A stretch of 64,000 bases of DNA from Parcubacteria group bacterium Gr01-1014_8 (GCA_007376385.1 VMGC01000004.1:64001-128000), one strand, 5' to 3'; positions 3,703 through 35,732 are shown, counted from the stretch's first letter. A program made the numbers and translations. The notes: generated from the sequence alone by a model not told the origin.

Positions 3703-3759
3703 GGTTTCAATTTTATTGTATAGCCGGATGATAGGAGCGATAGGGGACAGCGTCAAGCA

Positions 3760-6183: not shown

Positions 6184-7599
6184 ATGAGCACGGAATCCGC
6201 AACGCCTAAAAAGCGTGCGAAAACAAAAAAGAAAAAGAAGAAAAACGGTTTTAAAAAATTCTGGCGCCTCGGAATGGAGGAGTTTAATACGGGGGGCTTT
6301 GATATTAGTTCCGACGGCGAACTTGTCGCGCGCGAGGGCAATTATCAATACAATATTTTCGATATTGTAAAGAAATACGGCTCTCCGACGGAAATATTCT
6401 TTCCAACCGTCGTTGAGAACCGTGTGCGTGACCTTATCGAGACATTCAACGCGTACATAAAAGTCCTCGGATACAAGGGGAAATTTCACTACCATTATCC
6501 AATGAAAGTGAACCAAAACAAGGAATTTGTCTTACCTGCGGTAGCCGAGGGCTCCAACCTTGATGTTGCATCTGCAAACGAGCTGTATCTGGTAAAGCGA
6601 ATGTTGGAACAGGAAAGGTTCCACAACAAGATGCGCGTCATATGCAATGGTCCGAAAACAGCGCGGTACATGGACCTCATAGAAGAGCTGCGGGGGAAAG
6701 GACTCACGGTCATTCCGATAATCGAGGATCCGGTGGAGCTCGAGCGGATGCAAAAATTCAAAGGTCCTGTCGGCATTCGCGTCGATTTGAACGTTAAAGT
6801 GAAAAGTCATTGGGATAAGAAATTCAACCGCTTCGGCTTTACTGAAGATGAGTTGCTCGACATAGGGAAAATACGAAATCTTTCGGTATTGCACTATCAC
6901 ATTTCAAGCCAAATAGAGCAGATGAACGGATTTATTGAGCCGCTCAAAAGGGCAATTCAACTATTTGCAAAAATGAAGGAAAAGAATCCTGGATTGGACA
7001 CGCTCGATATCGGCGGGGGAGCAGGAGTTCCGTACAACAAGCAAAAGAAATTTTATTCGGGAAAAAGCCTCATTCAAAAGATCGTTAAAACAGCAAAAAC
7101 GCAAGCTGATGCGCTTGGGATAAAGCACCCGAATCTCATCGCCGAGTGGGGGCGTTACGTTGTCGCACCAGCCCAGATGACAATTTACAGGGTCATCGCC
7201 GAAAAGAGCGTGCAAAATAAAGGAGGCAATAAATGGTACGTCGTTGACGGAAGTTTTATGAACGACCTCACTGATACGTGGGCGCTCAAACAGAAGTGGC
7301 ACGTGATACCGATAAACAACTTACATCATCCGAAGTTGGAGCGGGTCTGGTTTGCCGGCAGTTCCTGCGACAGTGATGACAAGTACACTCACGGCGGCGT
7401 TCATGTTTTAGTGCCTAAGTTGTCAGATATAGACGAGCTGTTTGTCGGTATCCTCGATACCGGTGCATACCAGGACTCGCTTGCCTCGCATCATTGTCTT
7501 CTTTCATCGCCTTTGAAACTTATGGCTGCAAACGGCGAGATAAAAGTTGTGCGCAAGAGGGAGACACCAGAAGAGGTTGGGCGTCAGTTCGGGTGGTAG
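6184..7599 (+). CDS. speA: PLP-dependent arginine decarboxylase-like enzyme (fold-III Orn/DAP/Arg decarboxylase family, SpeA-like short form)
   Basis: 'YHYPMKVNQN' (PLP-lysine motif as in SpeA YPxKVNQ), 'LDIGGGAGVPY' (GGG loop) and 'SSCDSDDKY'. The N-terminal 30 aa are Lys-rich and come from an A-rich tract; the real start may be MEEFN at 6274. Confidence 0.6.
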   Translation: MSTESATPKKRAKTKKKKKKNGFKKFWRLGMEEFNTGGFDISSDGELVAREGNYQYNIFDIVKKYGSPTEIFFPTVVENRVRDLIETFNAYIKVLGYKGKFHYHYPMKVNQNKEFVLPAVAEGSNLDVASANELYLVKRMLEQERFHNKMRVICNGPKTARYMDLIEELRGKGLTVIPIIEDPVELERMQKFKGPVGIRVDLNVKVKSHWDKKFNRFGFTEDELLDIGKIRNLSVLHYHISSQIEQMNGFIEPLKRAIQLFAKMKEKNPGLDTLDIGGGAGVPYNKQKKFYSGKSLIQKIVKTAKTQADALGIKHPNLIAEWGRYVVAPAQMTIYRVIAEKSVQNKGGNKWYVVDGSFMNDLTDTWALKQKWHVIPINNLHHPKLERVWFAGSSCDSDDKYTHGGVHVLVPKLSDIDELFVGILDTGAYQDSLASHHCLLSSPLKLMAANGEIKVVRKRETPEEVGRQFGW

Positions 7600-9043: not shown

Positions 9044-9127
9044 ATGAAGAGATACGATCATCGCAAAATTGAGAAAAAATGGGCCTCCTTCGCTAAGGCT
9101 ACGGACGGGCAAACAGCAGAAGTATGA
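9044..9127 (+). other. 27-codon upstream ORF that mimics the LeuS N-terminus; its TGA overlaps the leuS ATG (ATGA)
   Basis: Translates as MKRYDHRKIEKKWASFAKATDGQTAEV*. Its first 13 residues parallel LeuS MKSYDHKRIERKW. The stop at 9125-9127 overlaps the leuS start at 9124-9126. Confidence 0.3.
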
Positions 9128-19349: not shown

Positions 19350-20054
19350 TTGCGACACGTAGCCTGGGCAAACGGCTGCCCTGGGGTCTCCCCCGGGTTC
19401 CGGTATAATTTCGAGGTGACGTATGCCATACGTGTCAGAGACGTTCTTTCAACATCTGAACGTCGGATATTTTCCCGCCTCTCTTCCCCGCGGAAGCTTC
19501 AGGATTTCTTAGAATCTATTCCGATCAATTTTGAGCAAAAAGGAGAAACCAACCACTCCCCCGAAAACGTCCTAAAAACCGGGGAAGCCCATTGTTTTGA
19601 AGCGGCTGTATTTGCCGCCGCGGTACTTGCCTACCATGGCCGGAAGCCTCTCCTCATGGATTTTGCGACTGCATATGACGATGAAGACCATACAGTTGCC
19701 CTTTTTCGAGAAAGCGGCCTCTGGGGCGCGATCAGTAAGACAAACCATGCAGTACTACGCTACCGAGATGCTGTTTATAGGACTCCGCGCGAACTCGCAC
19801 TGTCTTATTTCCACGAATACTATATGTGGGATGGCAGAAAGTCTTTGCGCGCTTTTTCTAAGCCGTTTGACGTATCTCGCTATGCGCCTGAAAAATGGAT
19901 AACGACGGAAACGAGCCTAGACTGGCTCATGGATAGAATTTCCAAGTCTCCCTATTATGCGATGGCGCCGGAAAAAGCTCTTAAAAAGCTTCGACCTGCC
20001 TCGCCTATCGAACTTCGTGCGCTGAAACTGACAGAATGGAAAAAGAAAGTCTAG
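19350..20054 (+). CDS. Transglutaminase-like cysteine peptidase-fold protein
   Basis: 'GEAHCFEAAVFAAAVLAYHG' fits the transglutaminase-core Cys motif GxxxCxxFAxxF. Start codon uncertain. Confidence 0.4.
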   Translation: MRHVAWANGCPGVSPGFRYNFEVTYAIRVRDVLSTSERRIFSRLSSPRKLQDFLESIPINFEQKGETNHSPENVLKTGEAHCFEAAVFAAAVLAYHGRKPLLMDFATAYDDEDHTVALFRESGLWGAISKTNHAVLRYRDAVYRTPRELALSYFHEYYMWDGRKSLRAFSKPFDVSRYAPEKWITTETSLDWLMDRISKSPYYAMAPEKALKKLRPASPIELRALKLTEWKKKV

Positions 20055-21316
20055 AGATAATCCAATGGATTCAAATACCCTCCTACAGCTGAAACCGGAA
20101 TGGTTGCCTTCCCACATGGAGTATTCGTACCAAGCTGGCGTACCTGCACCGCGTCAGAAGCATATACGGTGAAGTGCAAGTGCGGGCCGGTCGCATATCC
20201 CGTATTGCCAGAGTACCCTATCGCCTGCCCGGTAGAAACGGATTGTCCTTGACTCACATTTATTTGCGACAGGTGCGCATAGAGCGTCGTAAGTCCGTTG
20301 CCATGTTTTATCAGCACCCATTTTCCATATGAGTAACAACCTCTTACAGCGTCAGAATTGCCAGTTCCGATAACGTCTCCCGAAAGAGCGGTTTTTACAG
20401 GCGTACCGATAGATGCACGAAAATCCACACCGTTGTGGCCTTTTCCGCTGTATGCTCCGCTGCGTGCGAAATCCGTATTTCCGAAGTTTTGCGTGATTGT
20501 CACGCTATCCAGGGGCCAGCGCAGGATTCCCTTCCCGGATGGTGGCAAAAGCTTCGGGTTCAGTGTGTATTGGAGTTTTGATTCCAGTTCGTTCAGAGAT
20601 TTCTCGAACGTTGCTTTGGCTGTACGTTTTGCTTCCAGAATTGCTTGGTAGTTTGCCTCTTGTGATTTTGTTTGCGCGAGAAGCGCGTTCTGCTCGCGTC
20701 TCGTCACGTCCAAGGATTCCTGTTGCGAGGCCAACGTCTCCTTCTGACTGACAAGTTGCTGACGTTTTTTGTCAGATTCATCACGCGATACAGTCAGTTC
20801 TTCCTTGGCTGCCATCATTGAATCAATATGTTCGTTCACGGCATCCTGGAACGAACGGTTGGTCTCCAAGTCGTCCCACAGAGCGGATATAGAGTCGCTC
20901 GTAAGCACTTGTTCAATAAGCGTCACGTTTTCTTGTTGATTCATGGACTGAATGGCCTGAGTCAAACCCTCTTCATCCCGATGTATCGCGGTCTCTTTAT
21001 CAACGATAGAACCGTCGAGCCGTTTGATCTCCAACTCTGTCGTAGCAATGTTTGCCTTAGTAACGTTTATCTTTGCGTTTAATTGTTTACGCTGAAGGTC
21101 AAGGATAGAGACTGTATTTTGCAGTGTTTGTTTCTTCGCACCGACTTCCTGCAGCTGCTTTTCAAAAGCGGCAATTTCTCTGTTGAGTTGTTGAATGTGC
21201 GAATTTTGCGAATTTATCTGGTTCTGCAATTGATCGGCCGTTTGAGCAGACAACACGAAAGGCGTACTGGCAAGTACCGCCAGTGCAAGCATGAAGATAC
21301 CGCCTCGTACGTGCAT
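20051..21316 (-). CDS. M23 family peptidase with N-terminal coiled coil (EnvC-like murein hydrolase/activator)
   Basis: Signal/TM, about 230 aa of Gln/Leu-rich coiled coil, and C-terminal 'GHNGVDF...YAHLSQ...GYSGNTGYATGPHLHF', the M23 HxxxD/HxH motifs. Confidence 0.75.
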   Translation of the reverse strand: MHVRGGIFMLALAVLASTPFVLSAQTADQLQNQINSQNSHIQQLNREIAAFEKQLQEVGAKKQTLQNTVSILDLQRKQLNAKINVTKANIATTELEIKRLDGSIVDKETAIHRDEEGLTQAIQSMNQQENVTLIEQVLTSDSISALWDDLETNRSFQDAVNEHIDSMMAAKEELTVSRDESDKKRQQLVSQKETLASQQESLDVTRREQNALLAQTKSQEANYQAILEAKRTAKATFEKSLNELESKLQYTLNPKLLPPSGKGILRWPLDSVTITQNFGNTDFARSGAYSGKGHNGVDFRASIGTPVKTALSGDVIGTGNSDAVRGCYSYGKWVLIKHGNGLTTLYAHLSQINVSQGQSVSTGQAIGYSGNTGYATGPHLHFTVYASDAVQVRQLGTNTPCGKATIPVSAVGGYLNPLDYL

Positions 21317-21318
21317 AA

Positions 21319-22650
21319 TTACGAAAGAGAAGCTATGGCTTTGCTGACGCGCCGCACTGTCTCATCCTTACCGAGGATCGAAGCAACAAGAAAAGGGTCC
21401 GGTGACTGTTCTTTGCCGGTAAGAGAGTATCGAAAAGGCCAAAGAACTGCTCCCCTTCCCTCTTTAGTGGCGTAGGGCCAAAGCGCATCTTTTATCGAGG
21501 ATACGTCGAATACATTCAACGCTTCAAGCAGAGTCTTGATATCCCTAAGATGCTCGGCAGTTTTTGCGGCGCTGATCTTCTTCATTGGAATGAGATGTGC
21601 CTCTACTGAGGGCTGAACGAAGAAATAGTCGTATTCGCCGTTCATTGATTGTTCGTGAATGTCGCTCCATACAGAAATTCGCTCGCGAACAAGCGGAATG
21701 ATCTTTTTTGCAATGGATTCGTTCCAGTTCAAATGCGTAAGTGAATTTTCAAGCCACGACAGAGCCTCTGATGCGAACGCACTATCTGATAGTTTCAACA
21801 TATATTCGCGATTGAACCATCGCAATTTCTCAACATCGAAGACTGCTCCGCTTTTGTGCAGATCTGATAGTTCGAATTCCTGTACCATCTCATCGAGCGA
21901 CAATACTTCCCTTCCTGACGGCGCAGTCCACCCCAGCGTCGCTAGGTAGTTCAAGAGCGCTTGGGGCAGATATCCCTTTTCCCTGTAATTCTTTACAGCA
22001 ACGTCGCCCTTTCGCTTGGATAATTTTGCCCGGTCGAGGCTCAGGTGCAGAGGATAATGGGCGTACATGGGTCTTTTCGCGCCGAGTGCTTCTTGAATGA
22101 GAATTTGACGCGGCGTATTAGATATATGGTCCTCCCCTCTGATAACGTGCGTAATTCCCATAGCCGCATCGTCAACCACGACGGCAAGATGATACAGCGG
22201 GTCGTCCTTGGAGCGAGCGATGACAAAGTCTTTAAGCTCCGTTGTGTCAAACGATATATCGCCGCGTATGACATCAGTAAACGTGATAGTTTTGCCGGAA
22301 TTCCGCAATCGAATAACGCTCACCATTGTACCGGGGTCCTTCTTACTCTCTTCGTCCGATACGTATGCTTTATCTTCATCAATAAGTTTTTCTATTTCAG
22401 CGCGATACACGTCGATCCTCTCGGATTGTCTATGAAATTCGTCCCATGAAAGCCCAAGCCACGTGAGCGAATCTTTGATGTCATCCTCGAATTCTCGGGT
22501 ACTTCGTTCTTTGTCCGTATCCTCTGAGCGAAAAATGATGGTGCCATTGTTTTTTCGCGCAAACAAATAATTCACGATGGCCATACGCGCAGTACCTACG
22601 TGGCAGAACCCGGTCGGGCTCGGCGGAAATCTAACCCGCACGGAATTCAT
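21319..22650 (-). CDS. gltX: Glutamyl-tRNA synthetase
   Basis: 'VRVRFPPSPTGFCHVGTAR' (HIGH) and 'KLSKRKG' (KMSKS). Confidence 0.85.
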   Translation of the reverse strand: MNSVRVRFPPSPTGFCHVGTARMAIVNYLFARKNNGTIIFRSEDTDKERSTREFEDDIKDSLTWLGLSWDEFHRQSERIDVYRAEIEKLIDEDKAYVSDEESKKDPGTMVSVIRLRNSGKTITFTDVIRGDISFDTTELKDFVIARSKDDPLYHLAVVVDDAAMGITHVIRGEDHISNTPRQILIQEALGAKRPMYAHYPLHLSLDRAKLSKRKGDVAVKNYREKGYLPQALLNYLATLGWTAPSGREVLSLDEMVQEFELSDLHKSGAVFDVEKLRWFNREYMLKLSDSAFASEALSWLENSLTHLNWNESIAKKIIPLVRERISVWSDIHEQSMNGEYDYFFVQPSVEAHLIPMKKISAAKTAEHLRDIKTLLEALNVFDVSSIKDALWPYATKEGRGAVLWPFRYSLTGKEQSPDPFLVASILGKDETVRRVSKAIASLS

Positions 22651-22754
22651 ACCCCGTGAGAGAGATTACGCGAGCTTATGCAACAAACTCTCGGGATATT
22701 GAATTGAATGAATAGTATTGTCATATCTATTATTTTTTCTCTCATGGGGTCATA
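22649..22754. repeat. Intercistronic palindromic element, copy D: arms ATACCCCGTGAGAGAGA / TCTCTCATGGGGTCAT lie exactly between the murG stop and the gltX start
   Basis: Left arm 22649-22665 overlaps the gltX ATG. Right arm 22737-22754 overlaps the murG stop. Same terminal consensus as copies A, B and C. Confidence 0.55.
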
Positions 22755-23889
22755 GCGGCTCGTGGGAGAGCGCGGTCTCGAGAAGAATGGTCGCAAGCTT
22801 CCCTCCCGCATCGGGTCGTGCAAATTGTGCGGCCGCGGCGGACATCTTCGCCCGAGTCATCTCATCGTTCATTACTCTGTCTATTTCTGCAGCAAGGAGA
22901 TGCGGCGTCAAATTCTTTTGATCAACGACAACAGATGCTCCCGTTCTTGCATATGAGAACGCATTCTCCGTCTGATCATTTGAGATCTCCTTTGGGAGAG
23001 GAATAATGATGCTCGGCAATTTCCACGATGCTATTTCAAAAATGGTGCCGGACCCCGCTCGGGCAACAACGAGCGATGCAATTCCCGCTGTCATTCGCAG
23101 AGCAAGCGTGTTTAGCAGTCCGAATGTACGGTAGCGTTCTTTGTACGGCGAATCTTTGAGGATGACGTTAGCTATCCCATTCAATTCTTCAAGATTAGAT
23201 TTTCCGGTTTGGTGAACGACATTATATTTAGAGAGCAAGTCGGGGAGAGCGTTGAGTACGGCCTCATTTATTGCCTGTGCTCCCTGCGAGCCTCCCATGA
23301 TAAAGACTGTCGCTCGCGGCTGAAGTTTGAGAAATTCATATCCGCCCTCTTTCGTCGGATTCTCTATCTCTTTTCGTATCGGGTGTCCAATGAGAGCAAT
23401 GCGCGACTTCACTTTCGATGAATATTGCGCAACAGCTTCTGGATGAGCAACGGCGACCCATTTGGCGAATTTCGATGACCACAACGAGACTCGTCCGGGC
23501 TTTGCGTCTGCGTCGTATATGACAACCGGAATGTTTAAGGTGCGCGCTGCGTAGAGAGTCGGAAACGCCGCGTAACCGCCGGTAGAAAAGACGACATCAG
23601 GATAGATTGAAAATAATTGGAAAATTGATTTGATTATGCCGACGAACGTCTTGAAAACGTCAAACACGTTAAGAATGCTCGGATATGTGCGCAACTTTCC
23701 TGCAGGCGAAGGCCGATAGGAAATATCATGCTCGACAAGCGCTGCGTCATCAAACGCAGGCGGACCAATGTAGAAAAATTCAGGCGAAACAAGCCGCCGC
23801 GCATCCACGAGATCCTCAATGTGCTCCGCAACTGCAATGAGGGGATAAAAATGTCCGCCAGAGCCCCCTCCCGTGAAGACGATGCGCAT
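22750..23889 (-). CDS. murG: UDP-GlcNAc:lipid I N-acetylglucosaminyltransferase
   Basis: 'MRIVFTGGGSGGHFYPLIAVAE' and the C-terminal 'GGSQGA' glycosyltransferase-28 motifs. Confidence 0.85.
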   Translation of the reverse strand: MRIVFTGGGSGGHFYPLIAVAEHIEDLVDARRLVSPEFFYIGPPAFDDAALVEHDISYRPSPAGKLRTYPSILNVFDVFKTFVGIIKSIFQLFSIYPDVVFSTGGYAAFPTLYAARTLNIPVVIYDADAKPGRVSLWSSKFAKWVAVAHPEAVAQYSSKVKSRIALIGHPIRKEIENPTKEGGYEFLKLQPRATVFIMGGSQGAQAINEAVLNALPDLLSKYNVVHQTGKSNLEELNGIANVILKDSPYKERYRTFGLLNTLALRMTAGIASLVVARAGSGTIFEIASWKLPSIIIPLPKEISNDQTENAFSYARTGASVVVDQKNLTPHLLAAEIDRVMNDEMTRAKMSAAAAQFARPDAGGKLATILLETALSHEPL

Positions 23890-23928: not shown

Positions 23929-25023
23929 TTATTTCTTTGGCCTATATCTGGATATACCGAGCAAAATGCCGGCACTGCCCAGAGAGACAAGCATGGCAGA
24001 ACCACCCTGACTTATAAACGTCAACGGAATCCCGGTTAACGGGGCAAGACCAAGCATTGAACCAATATTTATAAATGCCTCGCTGACGAAATATGTTGAA
24101 ATGCCGACGGCAGCAAGCGCTCCGAAATAATCAGGCGCACGAGCAGCTACCGCAAAACCGCGCAGGGCGAGTAGTAAAAATACTCCTATGATGGCGCTTC
24201 CGCCGATAAAACCGATCTCCTCGGCCGCAACAGCAAATATTGAATCCCCCATCGGTTCAGGCAGATACGTAAATTTCTGAACGCTCTGGCCAAATCCGCG
24301 TCCAAAGACGCCGCCCGAACCTATCGCAATGAGGGACTGTTTTATTTGATAGCCTTCCGCGAGAGGATTTTCAGCGGGATTAATGAATGTCGTAACCCTA
24401 TCGAGCATGTACGGTCTTAGGTATGCAAGGCCCCCGAGCATGATGACGCCGATTGCGCCGATAATCGCGATATCACGTAATCGTGCGCCTGCCGCTACAT
24501 ATACTGCAAGTGCAGCGATACAGATGACGCCGAGCGTGCCTATATCGGGCTGTATGACAAGCAATAGAGTCGGCGGCGCAAGTATCGCCGCAAACGCGGC
24601 AAGACCTCGCCATGAACCGCTCTCCCCTCTCAATGTCGAGAAGTAGGAAGCAACCATAAGAATAGTCGCAATTTTAAGCGCTTCCGAAGGTTGAAACGTG
24701 AAGCCGAGTATCTCAATCCACCGTCTCCCGCCGCCGTGCATAAAGCCGACGTGCGGCACGAAAACGAGTGCCGTCAGCAACAGCGCACATCCATACAGAT
24801 ATGGCGCCCATACCCGCCATCTGCGATATTCAATGAACGTGGTAGCCGCGAGCGCTGCGAGACCAAGACTCACCCCAAGAACTAAGTGGTTAAAAACGAC
24901 TGACGAAATGTGCGATGCTCCGCGTGCGAGAAGACCGAACGCCGCTGATATGAATACGCCAGCGCCGCCGACTACGAGTACAGCAATAATACTAGCGAGA
25001 GGTTTGTCGATATGTGCTTTCAT
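23929..25023 (-). CDS. ftsW: SEDS-family peptidoglycan glycosyltransferase (FtsW/RodA)
   Basis: Start at 'MKAHIDKPLASIIAVLVV' (rc ATG 25021-25023). About 10 TM helices and '...GSGGVFGRGFGQS...PEPMGDSIFA', conserved in FtsW/RodA. Confidence 0.8.
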   Translation of the reverse strand: MKAHIDKPLASIIAVLVVGGAGVFISAAFGLLARGASHISSVVFNHLVLGVSLGLAALAATTFIEYRRWRVWAPYLYGCALLLTALVFVPHVGFMHGGGRRWIEILGFTFQPSEALKIATILMVASYFSTLRGESGSWRGLAAFAAILAPPTLLLVIQPDIGTLGVICIAALAVYVAAGARLRDIAIIGAIGVIMLGGLAYLRPYMLDRVTTFINPAENPLAEGYQIKQSLIAIGSGGVFGRGFGQSVQKFTYLPEPMGDSIFAVAAEEIGFIGGSAIIGVFLLLALRGFAVAARAPDYFGALAAVGISTYFVSEAFINIGSMLGLAPLTGIPLTFISQGGSAMLVSLGSAGILLGISRYRPKK

Positions 25024-25024
25024 G

Positions 25025-26533
25025 TCATCCGAGTGATTTTCGATACTTTGCCGCTGCAAGAGCATCGTCAGCGAATTCACTATTACCTTTCCAGAGATGG
25101 TAGATGTTCGATGTGTGGTTTCGATGCAGGAAATGCCGCTGCTTCTCCGGGCCAAGATCTTTTTCCACATACTCTTCAATGAGGGAAATATCTTCCGCGA
25201 GTACATTAAATCGAGCATCTCCGCCCATAAGCAGTTCTAAGTTTTCCTTATTCAAAAACTTACCCGCGTGGACGAGGTCCTTTTTAAGATTTACATACAA
25301 CCGCTCTAATAAGTTCATGATGCCCATCTCACGAGCGATCTTTAGCGCTCTTCCCGTAGCTATCAGCTCTGGCGGAATACCAAGGGAATAGAATGCGCCG
25401 GTGAATTTAATGGCTCTCGGCAGTTGAATCCCGCCAACACCGCGTGAATATCCGAAGAGTCCGATGTGCTGCGCCCTCTCACGATGACTCGGCAGTGCAG
25501 ACGCTACATCGTTTATGACATCCGCAAGCGGCGTTATTGTGTCAGTAAAAAAACGAGCTGCCCGAGCATTGAACAGAGAGATTTTTTCGCTGTCCTTCTC
25601 GTTCACTTTTTCATACCTGTCGATATTCTTAGGGATTTCTTTGTTGAGTTTTCGTATGGCTTTTTTCACGTCATCCAGCGGGTAATCCGAGCGAAAGGCT
25701 GATTGGATCGTCAACGACTGGGCACCTGTATACTGCTCTATGGTTTCGTCAACATATTCCGGGTTTATCCCTCCTCTGAACGGTAAGCTGCCGCCGCCAA
25801 CCCACGGATACATGCGTATACCTCGTTTTTCTCCTAGCTCATGTGAATCTGCAATAAGTTTCTTGACTGCGAGCACGGTCGGCAAAAGCCCCGCGTTCAT
25901 TGCCGGATCGGAGCGCGCTATAAAGACGCGAAAGTACTCTGGGACAAGAGCATGAGTGTCTCGCAGATAATCGAGATAATCACTCATGATGCGGGGAGCC
26001 TCTTCCATGGTCTCAACGCTTTCAAATAGCGGTATAACGTCGAGAAATTTGAATTCGCTTGGCATATCAAAAATACTTTCTGCAGCTTCCGCTATTCTAT
26101 GGAATCGCTCCTGCATCTGTTTGAGTTGCTCTGCAGAAGTCGTCATGGGCAAGATGAGTTCAAATATCGGAGGAATATGGAAACCGTATTGCCTCGCGGC
26201 ATGTTCGGCCGCAAATACGTTGATAAGGCTCCGCGGAAGCCGGTGTGTTTTCTCGACCCAAACATTTGGAATGCGAAACGTGAGAAATATGTTCTTGCCA
26301 ATTTGATGTTTCTTGAAATAGTCAAAATAGTTTTGGTACAGCCGGTCAATAACCGCCTCATCAACCAACTTTCCTTCCCAATCCCACATGTACTCGTGCA
26401 CTCCGAGCTCGGAAAAACATCGGTAGCATTCATCAATTTCCTCACTTGACGCAACAAACCGCTTCCCCGTAAAGGGTGACGGGCATGCGTTATCAGGATG
26501 CTGGGTGGCCATCGTGACGGGGATAGTGCGCAT
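25025..26533 (-). CDS. Archaeal-type phosphoenolpyruvate carboxylase (PEPC type 2)
   Basis: 'IPVTMATQHPDN' N-terminal hallmark of the archaeal-type PEPC family, about 500 aa. It is coupled to flanking mraY and ftsW with 9-nt and 1-nt gaps. Confidence 0.65.
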   Translation of the reverse strand: MRTIPVTMATQHPDNACPSPFTGKRFVASSEEIDECYRCFSELGVHEYMWDWEGKLVDEAVIDRLYQNYFDYFKKHQIGKNIFLTFRIPNVWVEKTHRLPRSLINVFAAEHAARQYGFHIPPIFELILPMTTSAEQLKQMQERFHRIAEAAESIFDMPSEFKFLDVIPLFESVETMEEAPRIMSDYLDYLRDTHALVPEYFRVFIARSDPAMNAGLLPTVLAVKKLIADSHELGEKRGIRMYPWVGGGSLPFRGGINPEYVDETIEQYTGAQSLTIQSAFRSDYPLDDVKKAIRKLNKEIPKNIDRYEKVNEKDSEKISLFNARAARFFTDTITPLADVINDVASALPSHRERAQHIGLFGYSRGVGGIQLPRAIKFTGAFYSLGIPPELIATGRALKIAREMGIMNLLERLYVNLKKDLVHAGKFLNKENLELLMGGDARFNVLAEDISLIEEYVEKDLGPEKQRHFLHRNHTSNIYHLWKGNSEFADDALAAAKYRKSLG

Positions 26534-26542
26534 ACAGATCGT

Positions 26543-27604
26543 TTATAGTGCTGATAGCGCCAAAATGACCCCAAGGAACGCAAATACGATGGAGAGTACC
26601 CAGTAACGCATGGCAACCTTATAGCCCGGCCAACCGATGGCTTCAAAGTGATGATGGAGAGGCGCGACGCGGAATATCTTCTTTCCGAGAAAGTATTTCG
26701 AGGTAACTTGGAGCACATTTGACCCCACAGTAATAACAAGAAGCCCTCCTATAATGGGAAGAACGGCGACGCCGACTCCTTCGCCCAAGCTATCTGTCAT
26801 GAATACGACAACAGCGAGCGCGAGTGTGAGCGCCATTGTTCCCGTATCGCTCATATAAAAACGCGCAGGCGGGATGTTGAACCACAAAAATGCGAGAAGT
26901 CCCCCGACCACGGACGCCGTAAATGCTGCGAGGTCTATCTGATTTTGCGCAAAAGCGATGACCGAATACGCCGCAAACACAGACATAAAAACACCGCCCG
27001 AGAGTCCGTCAATGCCATCAATGACCCCCGAGGCAAACAGAGCGAGGGAAAGCAGAACGAAAAAAGGAATAACAAGCCAGCCGATCTCGAGTGGTGAAGA
27101 GAAAGGAATATTTATCGTGTGAACATCAAGTTTTGCAAAAAACCATACGCCTATCATGGTCGACATGATGAGTACGACAACAAGTCGCACATTGAGAGGC
27201 AGCCCATCGCCAGACGGGCGTATGACAAGCACATCGTCGATGAATCCGGCGATACCGCCTATAACGAGCGCCGCGAGAGGTATCCACGTTTGATTTCGAC
27301 TTAAGAAATTGAGACTCGTTGTCACCGAGTCTTGAAAAAGACCTGCGAGACCAGCAAGACCAAGTATGGTAATAACGACGCTCCCCCACACGACGAGCCC
27401 GCCCATGCGCGGCGCTCTCTGTTCGTGGGCTTCGTGAAGCCTATTGAACTCAGATGCGACATTGCCATCAAGACCATTTTTCCCGGGTTTTTTTTTCCAC
27501 ATCCTGTGCTTGTAGAGATAGTGTGTCAGGATAGGTGTAATTGCCATCCCAACAACGAAGGTGGCGGCAGCCGGAACAAGAATGCGTACCGTATCGGACA
27601 ACAT
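26543..27604 (-). CDS. mraY: Phospho-N-acetylmuramoyl-pentapeptide transferase
   Basis: 'RVAPLHHHFE' and a polytopic membrane topology typical of MraY. Confidence 0.85.
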   Translation of the reverse strand: MLSDTVRILVPAAATFVVGMAITPILTHYLYKHRMWKKKPGKNGLDGNVASEFNRLHEAHEQRAPRMGGLVVWGSVVITILGLAGLAGLFQDSVTTSLNFLSRNQTWIPLAALVIGGIAGFIDDVLVIRPSGDGLPLNVRLVVVLIMSTMIGVWFFAKLDVHTINIPFSSPLEIGWLVIPFFVLLSLALFASGVIDGIDGLSGGVFMSVFAAYSVIAFAQNQIDLAAFTASVVGGLLAFLWFNIPPARFYMSDTGTMALTLALAVVVFMTDSLGEGVGVAVLPIIGGLLVITVGSNVLQVTSKYFLGKKIFRVAPLHHHFEAIGWPGYKVAMRYWVLSIVFAFLGVILALSAL

Positions 27605-27624: not shown

Positions 27625-28599
27625 CTACAAGCTTTGCGCGATGGCTTTCGTGGCCCGGTCAACGAGACTGCGCATATCCTTAAATCGACCATCGTAGGAT
27701 GAGCCAAGCACCACAACAACAACGGGGTGACCCGGTCCCACCTCAAACACGACCACAACATTACCGCCTGCCAGATCCGTGTACCCTGTCTTGCCGAGCA
27801 CCAGCCCAGGAATATCCGGCAGAGCGTCATTCGTGTTAATAGTGGCGCTCGGACTGCCATTGAGCGGCCCAAGATCAGCATTCGGGTCGCTTGTCCCGGA
27901 AAATAGGTCCTGATCCACGGCCACAGCATGAGCAAAAAGTGTTGCGACATCTCGTGCTGAACCCATAGCGCCTGGCTGTGTCGTACCGATGTCCAGTCCG
28001 CTTGGATTAGCAAAGTATGTTTTTGCGAGGCCAAGTTCCTGAGCAAGTTTGTTCATCCTCCATACGGCGGTATTAGTATCCGGAGCGTCTGGATATTTTG
28101 CACGAAGCAGCGGCTCAGCGGCCTCCGCCAGGGCCTCTGCGCCCGCGTTCGATGAGCGTATAAGTGTAAAATCCACGAGGTCGCGAACTCTCCAGCTATC
28201 GCCCGTGCCGAGTCCGCCGCCCTCTCCTTTTTCCACTGCGTCTCGCGATATCGTAACCGTATCAAATGGCTGCAAGACTTCGGAAACTACAAGCATGAGG
28301 GGCACTTTCGTCAAAGACGCAAGCGGTAGCTGTGTCTCAGCATTTTTTTCGAAAAGCACGGCACGTTCATGCATGTCGTATACAAGAGCCGCCTTGGCCT
28401 CGAGCGAAACATCGCGAAATAGAGCGTGTGGCATCGCAACAGCTGCAGTTTGGTCAATACGAGTCTCTGAGGATCCAATTGACTGCATACCAACCAATAT
28501 CACAATGGTAGCCGTCAAAAAAAGAGATATGCTGGCAAGCCATTTCTCACGAGCTATTTCCATCGTTTTGCGAATGAGCGTTTTCATTGAAAATTTCAT
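27625..28599 (-). CDS. Serine-type D-Ala-D-Ala carboxypeptidase (PBP5/S11-like)
   Basis: N-terminal TM, 'ASLTKV' (SxxK), 'RSSNAG' (SxN) and 'GKTGYT' (KTG). Confidence 0.7.
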   Translation of the reverse strand: MKFSMKTLIRKTMEIAREKWLASISLFLTATIVILVGMQSIGSSETRIDQTAAVAMPHALFRDVSLEAKAALVYDMHERAVLFEKNAETQLPLASLTKVPLMLVVSEVLQPFDTVTISRDAVEKGEGGGLGTGDSWRVRDLVDFTLIRSSNAGAEALAEAAEPLLRAKYPDAPDTNTAVWRMNKLAQELGLAKTYFANPSGLDIGTTQPGAMGSARDVATLFAHAVAVDQDLFSGTSDPNADLGPLNGSPSATINTNDALPDIPGLVLGKTGYTDLAGGNVVVVFEVGPGHPVVVVVLGSSYDGRFKDMRSLVDRATKAIAQSL

Positions 28600-29122
28600 T
28601 CTTGCTCTTAAAAGCCTTTAGTTCGCGAGCGATTGTATCATAGTCGGGTAATTTTTCCGTGTTTGCTACACCGAGATGGGCAAGAAGCTCGACTGTCGGC
28701 CGATACAGGTATTCTCTGCCGTCCTCGGGATTTCCTGCTCGTTCGGCAAGGCCCCGCGAAAGCAGCGTTCGGAGTGTTGACGAAGAATTCACGCCTCGAA
28801 TGTAATCAATGTCGGCTCGGGTGGACGGACCGTCGTATAAAAGGATCGTCAATACTTCGAGCCCCGCATCGCCTATTTCTCGTTCCTGCTCTTTCAGCTG
28901 GGCAGCAGCTACGGTGTCACGTATGCCGGCAGAAACGGCCAGCGCGACTTCTTTGTCAGTCCTGACGACAGTGAGCGGCGTATTCTTGAGCGTCTGTTCA
29001 AGTACGTTCAATGCACCAAGAAGCTCAGCCTGATCGCAGTCTAAGAATTGTGCCAATTTCTTCAGCGTCAGGGAATCGCCTTCTGCAAACAATAGTGCGT
29101 GAATTTTAGAAGCAAGGTCCAT
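28547..29122 (-). CDS. scpB: Segregation and condensation protein B
   Basis: Winged-helix tandem 'IHALLFAEGDSLTLKKLAQ...LGALNVL'. Start chosen at MDLASK (rc ATG 29120-29122), 4 nt after the scpA stop. It lies directly downstream of scpA. Confidence 0.65.
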   Translation of the reverse strand: MDLASKIHALLFAEGDSLTLKKLAQFLDCDQAELLGALNVLEQTLKNTPLTVVRTDKEVALAVSAGIRDTVAAAQLKEQEREIGDAGLEVLTILLYDGPSTRADIDYIRGVNSSSTLRTLLSRGLAERAGNPEDGREYLYRPTVELLAHLGVANTEKLPDYDTIARELKAFKSKNEIFNENAHSQNDGNSS

Positions 29123-29126
29123 ATGT

Positions 29127-29903
29127 TCAATATTTTGGCGCGCCAAGAGCTTCGGTTTCGAGAAGAATATCACTAAAAAGCTTCTCCTGCGTTGCGCTAA
29201 TGCTGCCGCTGCGTATTAGTTCCAAGACCGCGAGAAAATGGACTATCATTTCGTGCCTTCCGGATGCCTTGGTTAATTCGCTCCACTTTGTGCGGATAGA
29301 GGATGCCAAACGGCGTCGCAGAGTCCCGATGACCTCTTCGAGTTGGAGAATGGGGACGACAGTCGCTTCTGCCAGGCGTTCGGGTTTTGGAAGAGTATTT
29401 ACCAGTCTTTTTGCGGCGCCGAGCAGCATGGCAAGCGTCGTTTCTCCAGGATTGAAGGCCACCGCACGTCCTCCCGTATGCTCCGGCGTAGGCTGTCGTT
29501 TTGCGAATTGCAGAGGCTTTTTCCTCCATATCTGCCGCAATGACTTTGACGACTTTCGTACCAACGCATACGCGGCAAGTCTCCTTTCCAATTCTCCGAT
29601 GCTTTGCGATTCCTCTTCGGACAAATCGACCGACGGAAGCAATGTTCTGGACTTGATAAGCAGCAGAGTGGATGCAATGAGTATGAACTGCGCGGTCTCC
29701 GCGAGAGGCAATTGCGGCAAACTCTCAACGTATGCGAGGTATGCGTCGGTTACTTCCGCAAGAGAAACTTCGGATATCGAAAGCTTTCTCTCTTCTATCA
29801 AGCTAAGAAGAGCATCAAGCGGTCCAGAATATGTATGTGTAGCTACGGCAAAGGCGCTCATGCCCGCCACTCGAAATGGCATCGCAAGAGAGAACATTGC
29901 CAT
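29127..29903 (-). CDS. scpA: Segregation and condensation protein A (kleisin)
   Basis: 'YSGPLDALLSLIEERKLSISEVSLAEVTDAYLAYV' is the ScpA N-terminal signature. It is paired with scpB. Confidence 0.65.
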   Translation of the reverse strand: MAMFSLAMPFRVAGMSAFAVATHTYSGPLDALLSLIEERKLSISEVSLAEVTDAYLAYVESLPQLPLAETAQFILIASTLLLIKSRTLLPSVDLSEEESQSIGELERRLAAYALVRKSSKSLRQIWRKKPLQFAKRQPTPEHTGGRAVAFNPGETTLAMLLGAAKRLVNTLPKPERLAEATVVPILQLEEVIGTLRRRLASSIRTKWSELTKASGRHEMIVHFLAVLELIRSGSISATQEKLFSDILLETEALGAPKY

Positions 29904-29992
29904 TTATTACGTCCTGCTGATAATTGCTCGATCATATATTTGTTCTGTATTTTATATCTGCTAAATTCCAAATGCCATTTCGCATGCTCGGA

Positions 29993-31387
29993 TTACACTT
30001 TCTTCTTTTTTATCTCAATGCCCAGTTCATTCAGCTGTTTGCCCTGAAGCGGCTTAGGTGCGTTCATAACTGCGGTTTGGCCGCCCCTCGTCATCGGGAA
30101 TGCCTGCACCTCGCGAAGATAGCTCTCCCCCGTCAGGTTCATCAGAACGCGTTCAATGCCGATTGCGATGCCTCCGTGCGGCGGGGCGCCATAGGTAAAG
30201 GCTTTCAACATGTGCCCGATGCTATCTTCGATGCGTTCATCGCTGTAGCCCATTGTCTTATACACAGCACGTAATATGCCTGGTCTATGGGCGCGAATAG
30301 AACCCCCAGCGGTCTCGAAGCCGTTACAAACAAGATCATATTGCGCTGTCAAAATGTGTTCGATATTGCGGCCGTGCAACAGGTCATCCGCATGCTCTGG
30401 AAGCGGCGCAGAAAATGGATTGTGAGTGAACGTCCAACCGCCCTCAGGCGTTTTCTCAAAGAACGGGAATTTGTGGACCCACGCATACGCAAGAACCCCG
30501 GTTTTCTTCTCATCGTCTGTTCGAAGGTCGAATTTATCAGCGCCGAATTTTTCCATTGCTTCAGCATAGGTAAATCGCGGAAATGGTTTTTCACGAACTT
30601 TAAACCCGAGCTTTTCCACCGTCTCAGTCATCATGTCCTCCACGATGGCCATCACATCTTCTTGTTCGACGAATGACATCTCTATATCGATCTGCGAGTG
30701 TTCAAAGCCCCGGTCAGCCCGCAGGTCTTCATCGCGGACGGCGCGCGCAATCTGAAAATATCGCTCCATGCCTGCAACCATCAGAAGCTGCTTGTACTGC
30801 TGTGGGGACTGCGGAAGAGCATAAAATGAGCCTGGATGGAGCCGCGATGGAACGACAAAATCCCTCGAACCTTCCGGTGTTGACTCTGTGAGGAGAGGTG
30901 TTTCAATTTCGGTGAATTTCTTTGCAAATAAATACTCTCTGCACGCTCTGACAAATTCGCTCCGCAATCGAATATTCTTTTGCATTCGTTCACTTCGAAG
31001 ATCTAAATAGCGGTACTGCAATCGAGTTTTCTCATCGACCATTGAGGTATCTTCAGTAATTTCAAATGGCGGCACATCGGATGCACCGAGAACATCGAGT
31101 GATCCAACTGATACTTCTATATCGCCGTTCTCTACCCCGACGGTTATATTTTTTCCAGGTCGTTTGTTAACAGTGCCCATGATGGAGATAGCCGACTCGC
31201 GTGTCGTCGTCTTAGCGACTTCAAGAGCAGGACTTTTGGTCAAGACAACGGTTTGGACCGATCCGGTCATGTCTCGCACGTCAAAAAAGACCATTTTACC
31301 TTGGTCTCTCCGTACTGATATCCAGCCGCGTATGCAAACGCTTTCCCCGACATGATCTTTAAGATCTTTAATGTAGGTACGTTCCAT
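29993..31387 (-). CDS. aspS: Aspartyl-tRNA synthetase, short archaeal/non-discriminating-like type without the GAD insertion
   Basis: Anticodon-binding OB 'VCIRGWISVRRDQGKMVFFDVRD' and class-II motifs '...FRDEDLRADR...' and 'GGSIRAHRP'. Start at MERTYIK is about 4 nt after the trpS stop; the coordinate is +/-1. The track ORF has 29 extra N-terminal codons. Confidence 0.85.
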   Translation of the reverse strand: MERTYIKDLKDHVGESVCIRGWISVRRDQGKMVFFDVRDMTGSVQTVVLTKSPALEVAKTTTRESAISIMGTVNKRPGKNITVGVENGDIEVSVGSLDVLGASDVPPFEITEDTSMVDEKTRLQYRYLDLRSERMQKNIRLRSEFVRACREYLFAKKFTEIETPLLTESTPEGSRDFVVPSRLHPGSFYALPQSPQQYKQLLMVAGMERYFQIARAVRDEDLRADRGFEHSQIDIEMSFVEQEDVMAIVEDMMTETVEKLGFKVREKPFPRFTYAEAMEKFGADKFDLRTDDEKKTGVLAYAWVHKFPFFEKTPEGGWTFTHNPFSAPLPEHADDLLHGRNIEHILTAQYDLVCNGFETAGGSIRAHRPGILRAVYKTMGYSDERIEDSIGHMLKAFTYGAPPHGGIAIGIERVLMNLTGESYLREVQAFPMTRGGQTAVMNAPKPLQGKQLNELGIEIKKKKV

Positions 31388-31391
31388 AGTG

Positions 31392-32327
31392 CTAGATCGA
31401 AACTCCAATCTTTTCACGAACGTCATACATCTTCTTGGATGCATATTCTCGCGCGTTCGCGCTCCCCTTTTCAAGTATTGTTGCTACATCTGAATCGCTG
31501 ATCGATGCATATTTCTCTCTCATCGGTTTTACAACGGCATCAATGTCCTCGATAAGCGCCTCTTTCAGGACCTTGTATTTTCCTTTATGTGCGCTATAGA
31601 GCGACTCAAGTTCTGCCTCAGCGCGAAAATGCCGGTGTACTTGGTACACATTCTCAGGTCTTTCTCCGGATGAGTCAGTGACAATGGACATCACCGCTTT
31701 TACGAGAACATCCTTTGGCTCAAAGAGAGGTATCGTATTTCCATAGCTCTTGCTCATTTTCTTGCCATCCGTGCCTGGAACGATAGCGACAGAATCCAAT
31801 ATCTTTGCTTGCGGTTCTTTAAATGTTTGGCCGAACGCAATGTTGAATTTCGACGCCGCTTCACGCGCGTACTCGAGATGCTGCCGCTGGTCAGCGCCCA
31901 CTGGTACAACATCGGTATCGTACAGCAAAATATCTGCGGCCATAAGCATCGGATAGTTAAAAAGTCCCACGTTCGCTTCGAGTCCTTTCGCAAGTTTGTC
32001 CTTGTACGCATGCGACAGTTCGAGGAAAGGAACAGTGACAAGACATTCAAATATCCACGCGAGTTCTGTGTGCTCCTGGACACGCGACTGCTGGAATATG
32101 ACCGCTTTATTGGGGTCAATACCGGCTGCAACGTAACTCTTGACGATATCGCGTATGTTGCTCCGAAGTTCATCCTTCTGGCGCAGAGTAGTAAGCGCGT
32201 GATAATCAGCAACCATCAAAAAGCTTTCGAAGCTGAAATAGAGTTCGGAAAACGGCTTTAATGCGCCCAAGTAATTCCCAATATGCAATACACCAGAAGG
32301 CTGGAGTCCCGTCAAAAGTCGCTGCAC
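31392..32327 (-). CDS. trpS: Tryptophanyl-tRNA synthetase
   Basis: 'LQPSGVLHIGNYLGA' (HIGH-like) and 'KMSKS' present, 311 aa. Confidence 0.85.
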   Translation of the reverse strand: MQRLLTGLQPSGVLHIGNYLGALKPFSELYFSFESFLMVADYHALTTLRQKDELRSNIRDIVKSYVAAGIDPNKAVIFQQSRVQEHTELAWIFECLVTVPFLELSHAYKDKLAKGLEANVGLFNYPMLMAADILLYDTDVVPVGADQRQHLEYAREAASKFNIAFGQTFKEPQAKILDSVAIVPGTDGKKMSKSYGNTIPLFEPKDVLVKAVMSIVTDSSGERPENVYQVHRHFRAEAELESLYSAHKGKYKVLKEALIEDIDAVVKPMREKYASISDSDVATILEKGSANAREYASKKMYDVREKIGVSI

Positions 32328-33866: not shown

Positions 33867-35732
33867 TTACACGTCCAATAATGGTAGCATGACTTCCGCC
33901 TCGGTTTCCCGCAGGAATTGTGCGAGTCGCGGACCATGATCTTTCGCGAACAGCAATTGGTACACGTGTTGGAAGAATCGCAATTGAGCGGCGCGGTTCC
34001 GGCGTTCGGTTTGACCACTCTTGTTGGGGAGAGCGTACAGTGCAAAGGAGAATTCCTCAAGACTTTTTGAACCCTTGCGCTTCAGGAGAGTTCGCAATTT
34101 TCTAAGCAGGATCATGTCGCGCGACTCAAGTTTGGCAGCATGCTCGACGTTCGGTTTATCCAGCAAATGGTATGTATGCTTATCATCAATTCTGATGTAT
34201 CGTCGGCCTTTTGGCCGCGCAATTGTCCGCACGTCTATATAAGAAATTTCCGCAGACGAAACGACCGATTGCCCTTGAATTTCCTGATTCATTAATCGCA
34301 AAAGCTTCGGAACATTTTTCTCCTTCACCTGCCTGAACTCATGCAATTTTGCTCTGAGCTTTTCCCCCTGCTTCTTTTCTAGAAGTGGCTTGGCAACGTG
34401 TTCATAGATATCCCGCTGGGGCAAAGTCGGTTTGCATACGATCTTGCCATGGATGGAGAGGCTTGATGCCCCGCTTCCGTAACCTCCGTAGGGCTGCGTG
34501 CCGCGTTCTATTCCGCGTGCGTGCAGATGAGTGTTGTGCAGTATCGTCCCTGCATCATGTATTTTTTTTCCGCTTATTACTTTTCCGACAAGCCCCGAAA
34601 CGTAGGCACTCGTACCATAGACGGTCACATACATGGCATTATGGGCGTAACGTGGATCCTCAAAATATAGTGCGAGTTCGCGATCACCCCGATATTTCTG
34701 CAAATAGATAATAGGTGCAAATATCTCATTGAAATTACCTCCCTCGTTTAGCGGCTTGTTGACTATGGTCGGCTGCAAGATGGCATCGCGCGTGGTTACA
34801 GTGCCCGGCGTTTGCGGATCTATCCATTTCAGATTATGCGTGAGTAGGTCTTCTATCCGGACCAGATCTCTCGGGTCGCTGATAGGTCCCACGCGATTCG
34901 TACGATCGCGGTAGTGCCCTACGTCCACCTCTCGAAGCTTCTCCCGTAACGCACCCAAAAAAACCTCAAAAATATCCTTGTGCACAAGAATAGTGTTTGG
35001 AGCTGCGCAGTCCTGTCCTTGATTGTACAGTTGCAGAGTGAGCACGGCATCGAGTGCCGCGGGAAGGTCGGCGTCCTTGCTGATGACTACCGGATTATGT
35101 CCCGCTCCGTTGGTGATGAACAGCGTACGGTTGTCGAATATGATGCGCAACTGATCAGCGTGCGCTGGCGTGCCTGTAAAAATAACGGCATCGGTTACGG
35201 GAAGACTCTCTCCGGTTGAAGGATCAACGCGGAGTGCAGAGTGCTCTGTAAGAAAATCCAAACGGCCCTGATGGGAGACAGCGATGTTGGGGAAAAGGGT
35301 CCGTATGTCGAGAAGTTCGAGGAGTTTAGGAAAGAATTGGCGCATGCTATGCGGAATACGGAAATGCACCTTATGTGCCATGAACGAAGGAATGATAACA
35401 AAGCACGTAAACGCGTACAGAGGCTGATTTCTAGGTAGAAATGACGCCACTTCATTCACGCGTAGCTGAAAGTATTTTTTGTTCTCCCGGAGATTTCGCA
35501 GAATGTCGAGCGTGCGGAACGTCTCATCCTGAACGACTTCGTAACTCTCGTACTCAAGCAATATGTTGGTCAGTTCTTCAAATTGGCCTTCTATCTTATC
35601 CGCGAGCAATTTCGCACGATGCGCTATCTCGTCAAAAGAAAGAATTGAATACGGCGCAAAGTCCGCCGCAGGAACGGCCTTCATCGGCATGGCAGGCTCT
35701 CGAACAGAGACGATCGTCGTGTCGCCTTTCAT
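33867..35732 (-). CDS. Aldehyde-dehydrogenase-superfamily (acyl-CoA reductase/LuxC-like) protein with a unique ~180-aa C-terminal extension
   Basis: 'NGAGHNPVV...LYNQGQDCAAPNTILVH' matches the ALDH catalytic-Cys motif (GQxC). The C-terminal 180 aa have no recognisable motif. Confidence 0.45.
   Translation of the reverse strand: MKGDTTIVSVREPAMPMKAVPAADFAPYSILSFDEIAHRAKLLADKIEGQFEELTNILLEYESYEVVQDETFRTLDILRNLRENKKYFQLRVNEVASFLPRNQPLYAFTCFVIIPSFMAHKVHFRIPHSMRQFFPKLLELLDIRTLFPNIAVSHQGRLDFLTEHSALRVDPSTGESLPVTDAVIFTGTPAHADQLRIIFDNRTLFITNGAGHNPVVISKDADLPAALDAVLTLQLYNQGQDCAAPNTILVHKDIFEVFLGALREKLREVDVGHYRDRTNRVGPISDPRDLVRIEDLLTHNLKWIDPQTPGTVTTRDAILQPTIVNKPLNEGGNFNEIFAPIIYLQKYRGDRELALYFEDPRYAHNAMYVTVYGTSAYVSGLVGKVISGKKIHDAGTILHNTHLHARGIERGTQPYGGYGSGASSLSIHGKIVCKPTLPQRDIYEHVAKPLLEKKQGEKLRAKLHEFRQVKEKNVPKLLRLMNQEIQGQSVVSSAEISYIDVRTIARPKGRRYIRIDDKHTYHLLDKPNVEHAAKLESRDMILLRKLRTLLKRKGSKSLEEFSFALYALPNKSGQTERRNRAAQLRFFQHVYQLLFAKDHGPRLAQFLRETEAEVMLPLLDV

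Follow-up and report, generated by a model that had tools for sequence, protein, structure and literature searches.

Phosphoenolpyruvate (PEP) carboxylase (PEPC) converts PEP and HCO3− into oxaloacetate and Pi, and the archaeal-type enzyme (atPEPC) is a homotetramer. Its subunit is of 55–60 kDa, whereas the bacterial and plant enzymes have subunits of 90–110 kDa with regulatory regions (PMC8100219), and described examples include the enzymes of Sulfolobus and Methanothermobacter (Ettema 2004, Patel 2004, as cited in PMC8100219). Among bacteria of the candidate phyla radiation (CPR), the presence of a PEPC was noted in Peribacteria, in a study that saw 'scant opportunities' for the use of oxaloacetate (PMC4736985). 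The second system to which the present locus relates is the division and cell wall (dcw) cluster, with the canonical order mraZ-rsmH-ftsL-ftsI-murE-murF-mraY-murD-ftsW-murG-murC-ddlB-ftsQ-ftsA-ftsZ in E. coli. Here, an atPEPC gene, ppc (25025..26533, minus strand), is described from a 64,000-nt stretch of Parcubacteria group bacterium Gr01-1014_8, the whole of which is called the window (WIN in the trees). The gene lies between mraY and ftsW.

The ppc product is a further member of a known enzyme family and is publicly annotated already, while its context may be new to the searchable literature: no description of the mraY-ppc-ftsW arrangement was found in the literature searched on CPR dcw clusters and on Kaiserbacteria peptidoglycan or oxaloacetate. 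The explanation that we favour, and hold to be probable, is that an intact accessory atPEPC from another CPR lineage was inserted into a mraY|ftsW junction devoid of murD, where its placement is incidental.

Direct reading of the sequence placed the gene in close contact with both neighbours. Upstream, mraY (phospho-MurNAc-pentapeptide transferase, 26543..27604, minus strand; PF00953, TIGR00445) ends with a TAA stop at 26545..26543 and is followed by a 9-nt spacer (26534..26542, minus strand; ACGATCTGT on the coding strand) before the ppc ATG. Downstream, the ppc stop TGA (25027..25025) is separated by a single nucleotide (25024..25024, minus strand) from the ATG (25023..25021) of ftsW, which encodes a SEDS-family peptidoglycan glycosyltransferase (23929..25023, minus strand; PF01098 with E 1.8e-84, TIGR02614). 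The longest ftsW open reading frame (ORF) starts at 25218 and would overlap ppc; the start at 25023 (MKAHIDKPLA) agrees with those of eight orthologues, of the form M-x-x-x-(x)-I/L-D-K/R-P-L, and is fitted by the Pfam FTSW match, which, counted from this start, sets in at residue 14. The gaps of 9 and 1 nt and the position between mraY and ftsW given in the original prediction were thus borne out, as was an archaeal-type PEPC of about 500 aa with TQHPDN near its N-terminus, the product having 502 aa and the N-terminal sequence MRTIPVTMATQHPDN.

The assignment to the archaeal-type family is confirmed by profile searches over the full length. PF14010 (PEPcase_2) matched with E 9.8e-129 and 430.5 bits (cutoff 25) over positions 1–493 of 493, and the equivalog model TIGR02751 (PEPCase_arch) with 462 bits (cutoff 146) over positions 1–506 of 506. 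The only solved relative, 3ODM from Clostridium perfringens, was found with E 3e-52. The bacterial PEPC model NF000584 showed similarity only at residues 160–255 (profile positions 509–606), with 21 bits vs a cutoff of 815. Membership of the Mur ligases or of a different dcw family was excluded, since the ORF gave no match to Mur_ligase_M, Mur_ligase_C or TIGR01087 in Pfam and NCBIfam at E ≤ 0.001, and none to other dcw families in the same profile collections. The product is 100% identical to the protein in the NCBI metagenome-assembled genome of Parcubacteria group bacterium Gr01-1014_8. At ~57 kDa, it falls within the 55–60 kDa range of atPEPC subunits and, like them, has no regulatory regions. 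It differs from other atPEPC in its host, a Kaiserbacteria-like CPR bacterium, and in the lodging of its gene between mraY and ftsW.

The TQHPDN, IPLFE, ARSDPAM and GGSLPFRGG motifs of the product align with 3ODM and are identical or near-identical to it; the C-terminal Gly lies outside the aligned stretches. In an alignment of 24 homologues, the four motifs and this Gly do not vary, and the ppc product keeps all invariant residues. Of the columns with at least 95% conservation among 77 other PEPCs, it also retains 99 of 99. The catalytic roles of the motifs are presumably those of the E. coli and maize enzymes. Synonymous divergence (dS) was saturated in nearly all pairs, and rates were compared on non-synonymous divergence (dN) alone. 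Among the four orthologues that share the context, dN of ppc was 0.11–0.20 with saturated dS, equal to or lower than that of the flanking genes (0.13–0.20 for mraY and 0.15–0.28 for ftsW). Since the family-invariant residues are kept and dN is no faster than in mraY and ftsW, it is concluded that ppc encodes what appears, by its sequence, to be an intact, working archaeal-type PEPC under purifying selection.

The original prediction had also located ppc in the murD slot of the dcw cluster. This holds relative to the canonical E. coli order, but not within the lineage. Six sister genomes without PEPC were compared (L084, L085, L089/L090, L091, L092 with its ENA twin, and the JGI 3300043331 contig), in which MraY is 74–79% identical. 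They share the block trpS-aspS-scpA-scpB-S11-mraY-ftsW-murG-gltX-M23, and ftsW follows mraY directly in all six, with gaps of 85, 26, 3, 1, 4 and 3 nt. None has murD at this junction, nor space for a remnant of it. Since mraY and ftsW are directly joined in the six sisters, ppc would have entered a junction without murD and displaced nothing. The 85-nt spacer (L084:11072-11156) contains a perfect 19-bp inverted repeat (CCGCAGGGTATTTTGACGG ... CCGTCAAAATACCCTGCGG), a strong hairpin between mraY and ftsW that is absent from the other genomes.

Nor was murD found nearby. With E. coli proteins as tblastn queries, only mraY, ftsW and murG were detected in the window and 10 kb beyond each end, and murC, murD, murE, murF, ddl, ftsA and ftsZ were absent from the window, from these ±10 kb extensions and from the sister loci; for murD, the contig sequence covered amounts to 84 kb. 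Pfam revealed no Mur ligase among window ORFs of at least 380 aa; the 10 kb on either side of mraY in L084 and L085 contained none, nor did the shorter sister contigs. Since murE and murF are missing upstream and murC, ddl and ftsQAZ downstream, the mraY/ftsW/murG cluster is a three-gene remnant of dcw. As in the canonical cluster, the three genes keep their relative order and orientation and are tightly packed. Unlike it, the lineage has no murD in the slot, with or without PEPC, and the block is flanked in the window by scpAB and an S11 carboxypeptidase gene on one side and by gltX and an M23 peptidase gene on the other.

It could be thought that ppc has taken over from MurD as a non-orthologous substitute, or that it is a mis-called Mur ligase, as its position relative to the canonical mraY-murD-ftsW-murG order of E. 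coli, and this alone, would suggest. This proposal was refuted, and we give it practically no credence: the profiles match PEPC families alone, the product has no Mur-ligase domain and keeps all PEPC-invariant residues, and the sisters, whose synteny is murD-less, lack PEPC and murD alike at this junction.

Horizontal acquisition, also put forward in the original prediction, is supported by PEPC phylogeny. In a neighbour-joining tree of 81 PEPCs, the clade of the window PEPC is monophyletic (100/100), sister to L083, L002 (Peribacteria) and L006 (Gracilibacteria) with 98/100 bootstraps, and lies inside sequences labelled Peribacteria, Gracilibacteria and Peregrinibacteria (100/100), with which the product shares 54–63% identity. 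PEPCs labelled Falkowbacteria, Buchananbacteria and Jacksonbacteria, and those of Nitrospirota, branch elsewhere. In contrast to this affinity, the nearest homologues of the adjacent MraY are from Kaiserbacteria (67–83% identity), which places the host, as judged from this protein, as a Kaiserbacteria-like member of the Parcubacteria. Since the PEPC nests with Peribacteria, Gracilibacteria and Peregrinibacteria while MraY is Kaiserbacteria-like, a transfer within CPR is indicated, and the donor was likely another CPR bacterium and not an archaeon.

The different affinities of the PEPC and its flanking genes would also be expected from an assembly chimera, in which a Gracilibacteria-type PEPC was mis-joined into a Kaiserbacteria contig. 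Such an artefact is scarcely credible. The insertion occupies an identical junction in four assemblies from different samples (the window, L001, L081 and L082), a second collinear assembly of the window genome (ENA k139_150609) has the length expected with ppc present, and the junctions are in-frame gene boundaries with uniform G+C.

The distribution of the arrangement was surveyed in the best 80 of at least 591 GTDB species carrying the atPEPC family. Among these 80 loci, mraY-ppc-ftsW was found in L001 only (PEPC 83% identical), and two further metagenomic contigs carry it, L081 (76%) and L082 (77%), which gives four genomes in all with that of the window. The next closest PEPC, L083 (63% identical), is not located between mraY and ftsW. 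In a collection of 5.8 billion proteins, only four clusters were at least 64% identical to the ppc product, vs over 120 clusters with at least 67% identity for MraY. Most close relatives thus appear to lack ppc altogether.

All trees were obtained by neighbour joining. In those of MraY, FtsW and both concatenated, the PEPC-bearing genomes formed one group in 0/200 bootstraps: L001, with ppc, grouped with L091, without it (199/200), L082, with ppc, with L085, without it (200/200), and the window genome with L081, both carriers (200/200). Since carriers are interleaved with non-carriers in the MraY and FtsW trees and orthologues are rare, ppc appears to be a patchy accessory gene in a Kaiserbacteria-like subclade. 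The four PEPCs themselves are monophyletic (500/500). Within them, the window sequence pairs with L001 (492/500), conflicting with the host tree, and L082 is the first to branch (383/500), in agreement with the host FtsW tree.

Such patchiness could result from a single ancient insertion in the ancestor of the subclade followed by repeated clean loss, with no later spread between relatives. The first-branching position of L082 in both the PEPC ingroup and the host FtsW tree argues for it, together with a ratio of PEPC dN to FtsW dN that is fairly constant across pairs (0.67–1.08). In addition, reduced CPR genomes commonly lose genes. However, five or six independent deletions would be needed, each leaving the mraY-ftsW junction intact, and the junctions of 1–4 nt in four of the six PEPC-less genomes are a mild argument against repeated deletion. 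The pairing of the window PEPC with L001, while its host genes pair with L081, also speaks against it. This course of events is therefore entertained only tentatively, as a serious but not the expected one. It concerns history alone and leaves the identity of the gene unaffected: an old insertion with several clean losses and a later spread between relatives are both possible.

With regard to expression, ppc stands in a long series of genes on the same strand. Upstream of mraY lie the S11 D-Ala-D-Ala carboxypeptidase gene (27625..28599, minus strand; PF00768), whose position is kept in all sister genomes, and scpB, scpA, aspS and trpS (28547..32327, minus strand; PF04079, PF02616, PF00152 and PF00579, respectively), whose order recurs in the sisters. 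Downstream of ftsW are murG (22750..23889, minus strand; PF03033 and PF04101, TIGR01133) and, at the end of the conserved co-directional block, gltX (21319..22650, minus strand; PF00749 and PF19269) and the M23 peptidase gene (20051..21316, minus strand; PF01551), in an order also found in L081, L084 and L085. Since the 9-nt and 1-nt spacers are too short for a promoter or terminator, read-through with the neighbours is likely, and ppc is likely co-transcribed with mraY and ftsW, as judged from the spacers. Consensus scans from 19.5 to 36.5 kb gave 13 promoter-like sites vs 18.6 expected from shuffled sequence, which is not above expectation, and 25 terminator-like sites vs 18.8, which is at background. 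The original prediction had taken the tight spacing as a sign of co-transcription with peptidoglycan and division genes. As evidence of a functional link the spacing does not serve, being the norm of this genome: same-strand gaps in the window have a median of 21.5 nt, 41% of them are of 10 nt or less, and coding density is ~0.94 (longest-ORF gene calls).

The other carriers differ in their junctions. In L081, the ppc start and the mraY stop codon (TGA) overlap as ATGA; the distance from ppc to ftsW is 4 nt there and 9 nt in L082. In L001, the two junctions are 140 nt and 308 nt wide and filled by copies of a terminal inverted repeat (TIR) element. Since they were widened by this repeat, close contact of ppc with its neighbours would be dispensable. 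The block also takes up unrelated lineage-specific genes in relatives: in the JGI 3300043331 contig, ftsW and murG are separated by a gene for a 535-aa class-I/II aminotransferase (Aminotran_1_2) on the opposite strand, and a 432-aa CMAS-like methyltransferase gene follows ftsW in L082 (L082:2817-4115). Since any gene inserted in the array is transcribed, the location of ppc among cell-wall genes is most probably incidental.

The TIR element of L001 (ATGCCCGCACACTAAATTT ... AAATTAGTGTACGGGT) is present there in three copies, at 1528-1664 between the S11 gene and mraY, at 2730-2869 between mraY and ppc, and at 4379-4686 between ppc and ftsW. Another copy is found on the contig of the window genome, ~3.4 kb past the window end (L086:15040-15180). 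An 88-aa GIY-YIG nuclease ORF (PF01541, E 1e-17) is carried by the 308-nt copy. All copies run precisely up to the start codon of the gene that follows, and their 5' end (tgtATGCCCGCAC) is similar to ATGCGC(G)CAC gene starts. By its appearance, this is a small mobile element with gene starts as its targets. As a vehicle of ppc it was rejected, since the third copy lies upstream of mraY and none is present at the junctions of the other three ppc-bearing genomes.

Functional coupling was also considered, according to which ppc is kept between mraY and ftsW because its co-expression with peptidoglycan genes is useful. Oxaloacetate could lead through aspartate and aspartate semialdehyde to diaminopimelate (DAP) and lysine for MurE, or the PEP pool shared with MurA could be tuned. 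In favour of this, ppc has kept its position in four diverged genomes, with the ATGA overlap in L081 and ppc-ftsW gaps of 1–9 nt in the window, L081 and L082, and in the sister JGI contig the gene inserted between ftsW and murG encodes a class-I/II aminotransferase. Moreover, at 13 Peregrinibacteria-type loci, a PEPC and an adjoining aspartate aminotransferase (AspAT)-like gene are found 2–4 kb from murE (L035, L037, L038, L040, L041, L044, L045, L046, L049, L050, L058, L065 and L066; e.g., murE at L045:7213-8538). Against this, most close relatives have no ppc at the site and its orthologues are very rare compared with MraY, so that PEPC would be dispensable for wall synthesis. No mraY or ftsW neighbour was seen at 76 of the 80 GTDB-species loci or at L083, and among the PEPC loci examined only the four carriers of the insertion have one. 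Tight spacing is the norm of the genome, and the window showed no dap, lys or asd genes. The proximity of murE is confined to one clade, in which unrelated genes intervene, and is at about chance level by our own estimate for genomes of ~1,000 genes; it is probably chance synteny in that clade. The intervening genes are a CDP-alcohol phosphatidyltransferase-like gene, a permease gene, a riboflavin-kinase domain gene and truB.

On this evidence, functional coupling is unlikely. Its fullest form, in which the acquired PEPC would be deliberately co-expressed with MraY and FtsW (translationally coupled in L081), tying CO2-dependent oxaloacetate and aspartate to peptidoglycan synthesis and division, is a little less likely still. 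If it were true, such co-expression would link DAP/lysine supply or the balance of the MurA PEP pool to wall synthesis, and the PEPC-AspAT-murE neighbourhood of Peregrinibacteria would be a second independent case of the same logic.

The neighbours of PEPC elsewhere point to a metabolic role. In 36 of the 80 Patescibacteria and Nitrospirota loci, a class-I/II aminotransferase gene was found no more than three genes away from PEPC, mostly directly downstream (e.g., L057:9518-10837, L010:6761-7888, L045:3976-5133 and L058:8238-9497). The adjoining enzymes are of three non-orthologous types, PRK06855-type, AspC/TyrB-type (PRK09257) and AspAT-like (best match asp_aminotase_Arch). Since PEPC is repeatedly paired with different transaminases, a module from PEP through oxaloacetate to aspartate can be proposed in CPR, and the pairing suggests that this route is recurrent in these bacteria. 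Unlike the PEPC-aminotransferase pairs of Peribacteria, Gracilibacteria and Peregrinibacteria, ppc in the window is neighboured by mraY and ftsW. By analogy with the former, its likely role is to supply oxaloacetate for aspartate.

The insertion of an incidentally placed accessory gene, which we favour, can be described as follows. The gene would derive from a CPR lineage with PEPCs like those of Peribacteria and Gracilibacteria, and would have been inserted exactly at mraY|ftsW of the packed co-directional housekeeping array trpS-aspS-scpA-scpB-S11-mraY|ftsW-murG-gltX-M23. Nothing would have been replaced, the junction being murD-free before the insertion. The gene would most likely be expressed by read-through with mraY and ftsW, and its product would form oxaloacetate and phosphate from PEP and bicarbonate, the former being turned into aspartate by an aminotransferase.

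Several observations weigh against this account. The arrangement is kept in four diverged genomes (PEPC 73–83% identical), three of which have tight or overlapping junctions, and some selective benefit of the position would agree with such persistence. G+C is flat over ppc (0.485–0.504 vs ~0.49 in the window), with no compositional sign of foreign DNA, as would be expected if the transfer is old. The phylogenies were built by neighbour joining only, and the taxon labels of several TPA assemblies are unreliable, so that the donor assignment rests partly on depositor labels; L001, for instance, is labelled Saccharibacteria yet has Kaiserbacteria synteny. Finally, the 64-kb window yielded no class-I/II aminotransferase, and the aspartate step is inferred for its genome.

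A set of polyamine genes was also observed in the window, at 2476-3756 (minus strand) and 6184-7599 (plus strand), and just before its start, at L087:11471-12688 and L087:13120-14172. It comprises a carboxynorspermidine synthase gene (NF043000, below cutoff), an arginine/DAP-decarboxylase-like gene, a second Orn/DAP/Arg-decarboxylase-like gene and an arginase-family gene. Carboxynorspermidine synthesis uses aspartate semialdehyde, a possible sink for PEPC-derived aspartate.

Among the other genes of the window, a leucyl-tRNA synthetase of 985 aa (9124-12081, plus strand) has an alpha/beta serine-hydrolase domain (PF06821/PF12695) at residues ~245–398, an insertion that separates the N-terminal catalytic part from the editing domain and is unusual for this enzyme. 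The long co-directional array that contains ppc is headed by a gene for a 621-aa protein (33867-35732, minus strand), in which the aldehyde dehydrogenase match (PF00171) is central only, at residues ~180–420, with long unassigned N- and C-terminal regions. No Pfam match was obtained in the scan for the ORFs at 45959-47338 (459 aa), 47381-48568 (395 aa) and 59621-61090 (489 aa), all on the minus strand; the last is assigned to DUF8128 in the precomputed L086 table.

In terms of gene order, the locus teaches that the "slot" in which a gene stands within a canonical cluster may deceive as long as the ancestral order of the lineage is left unchecked, murD having left the mraY-ftsW junction earlier in the lineage that carries ppc. 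The pairing of PEPC with aminotransferases would give oxaloacetate a use in reduced genomes, as aspartate (cf. PMC4736985). If coupling to peptidoglycan synthesis were true, it would represent a new metabolic input to the control of cell-wall synthesis in ultra-small bacteria. On the reading favoured here, the ppc locus would be a clean, dated case of metabolic gene transfer between CPR lineages, in which a gene was gained, and afterwards lost or exchanged, at a single operon junction.

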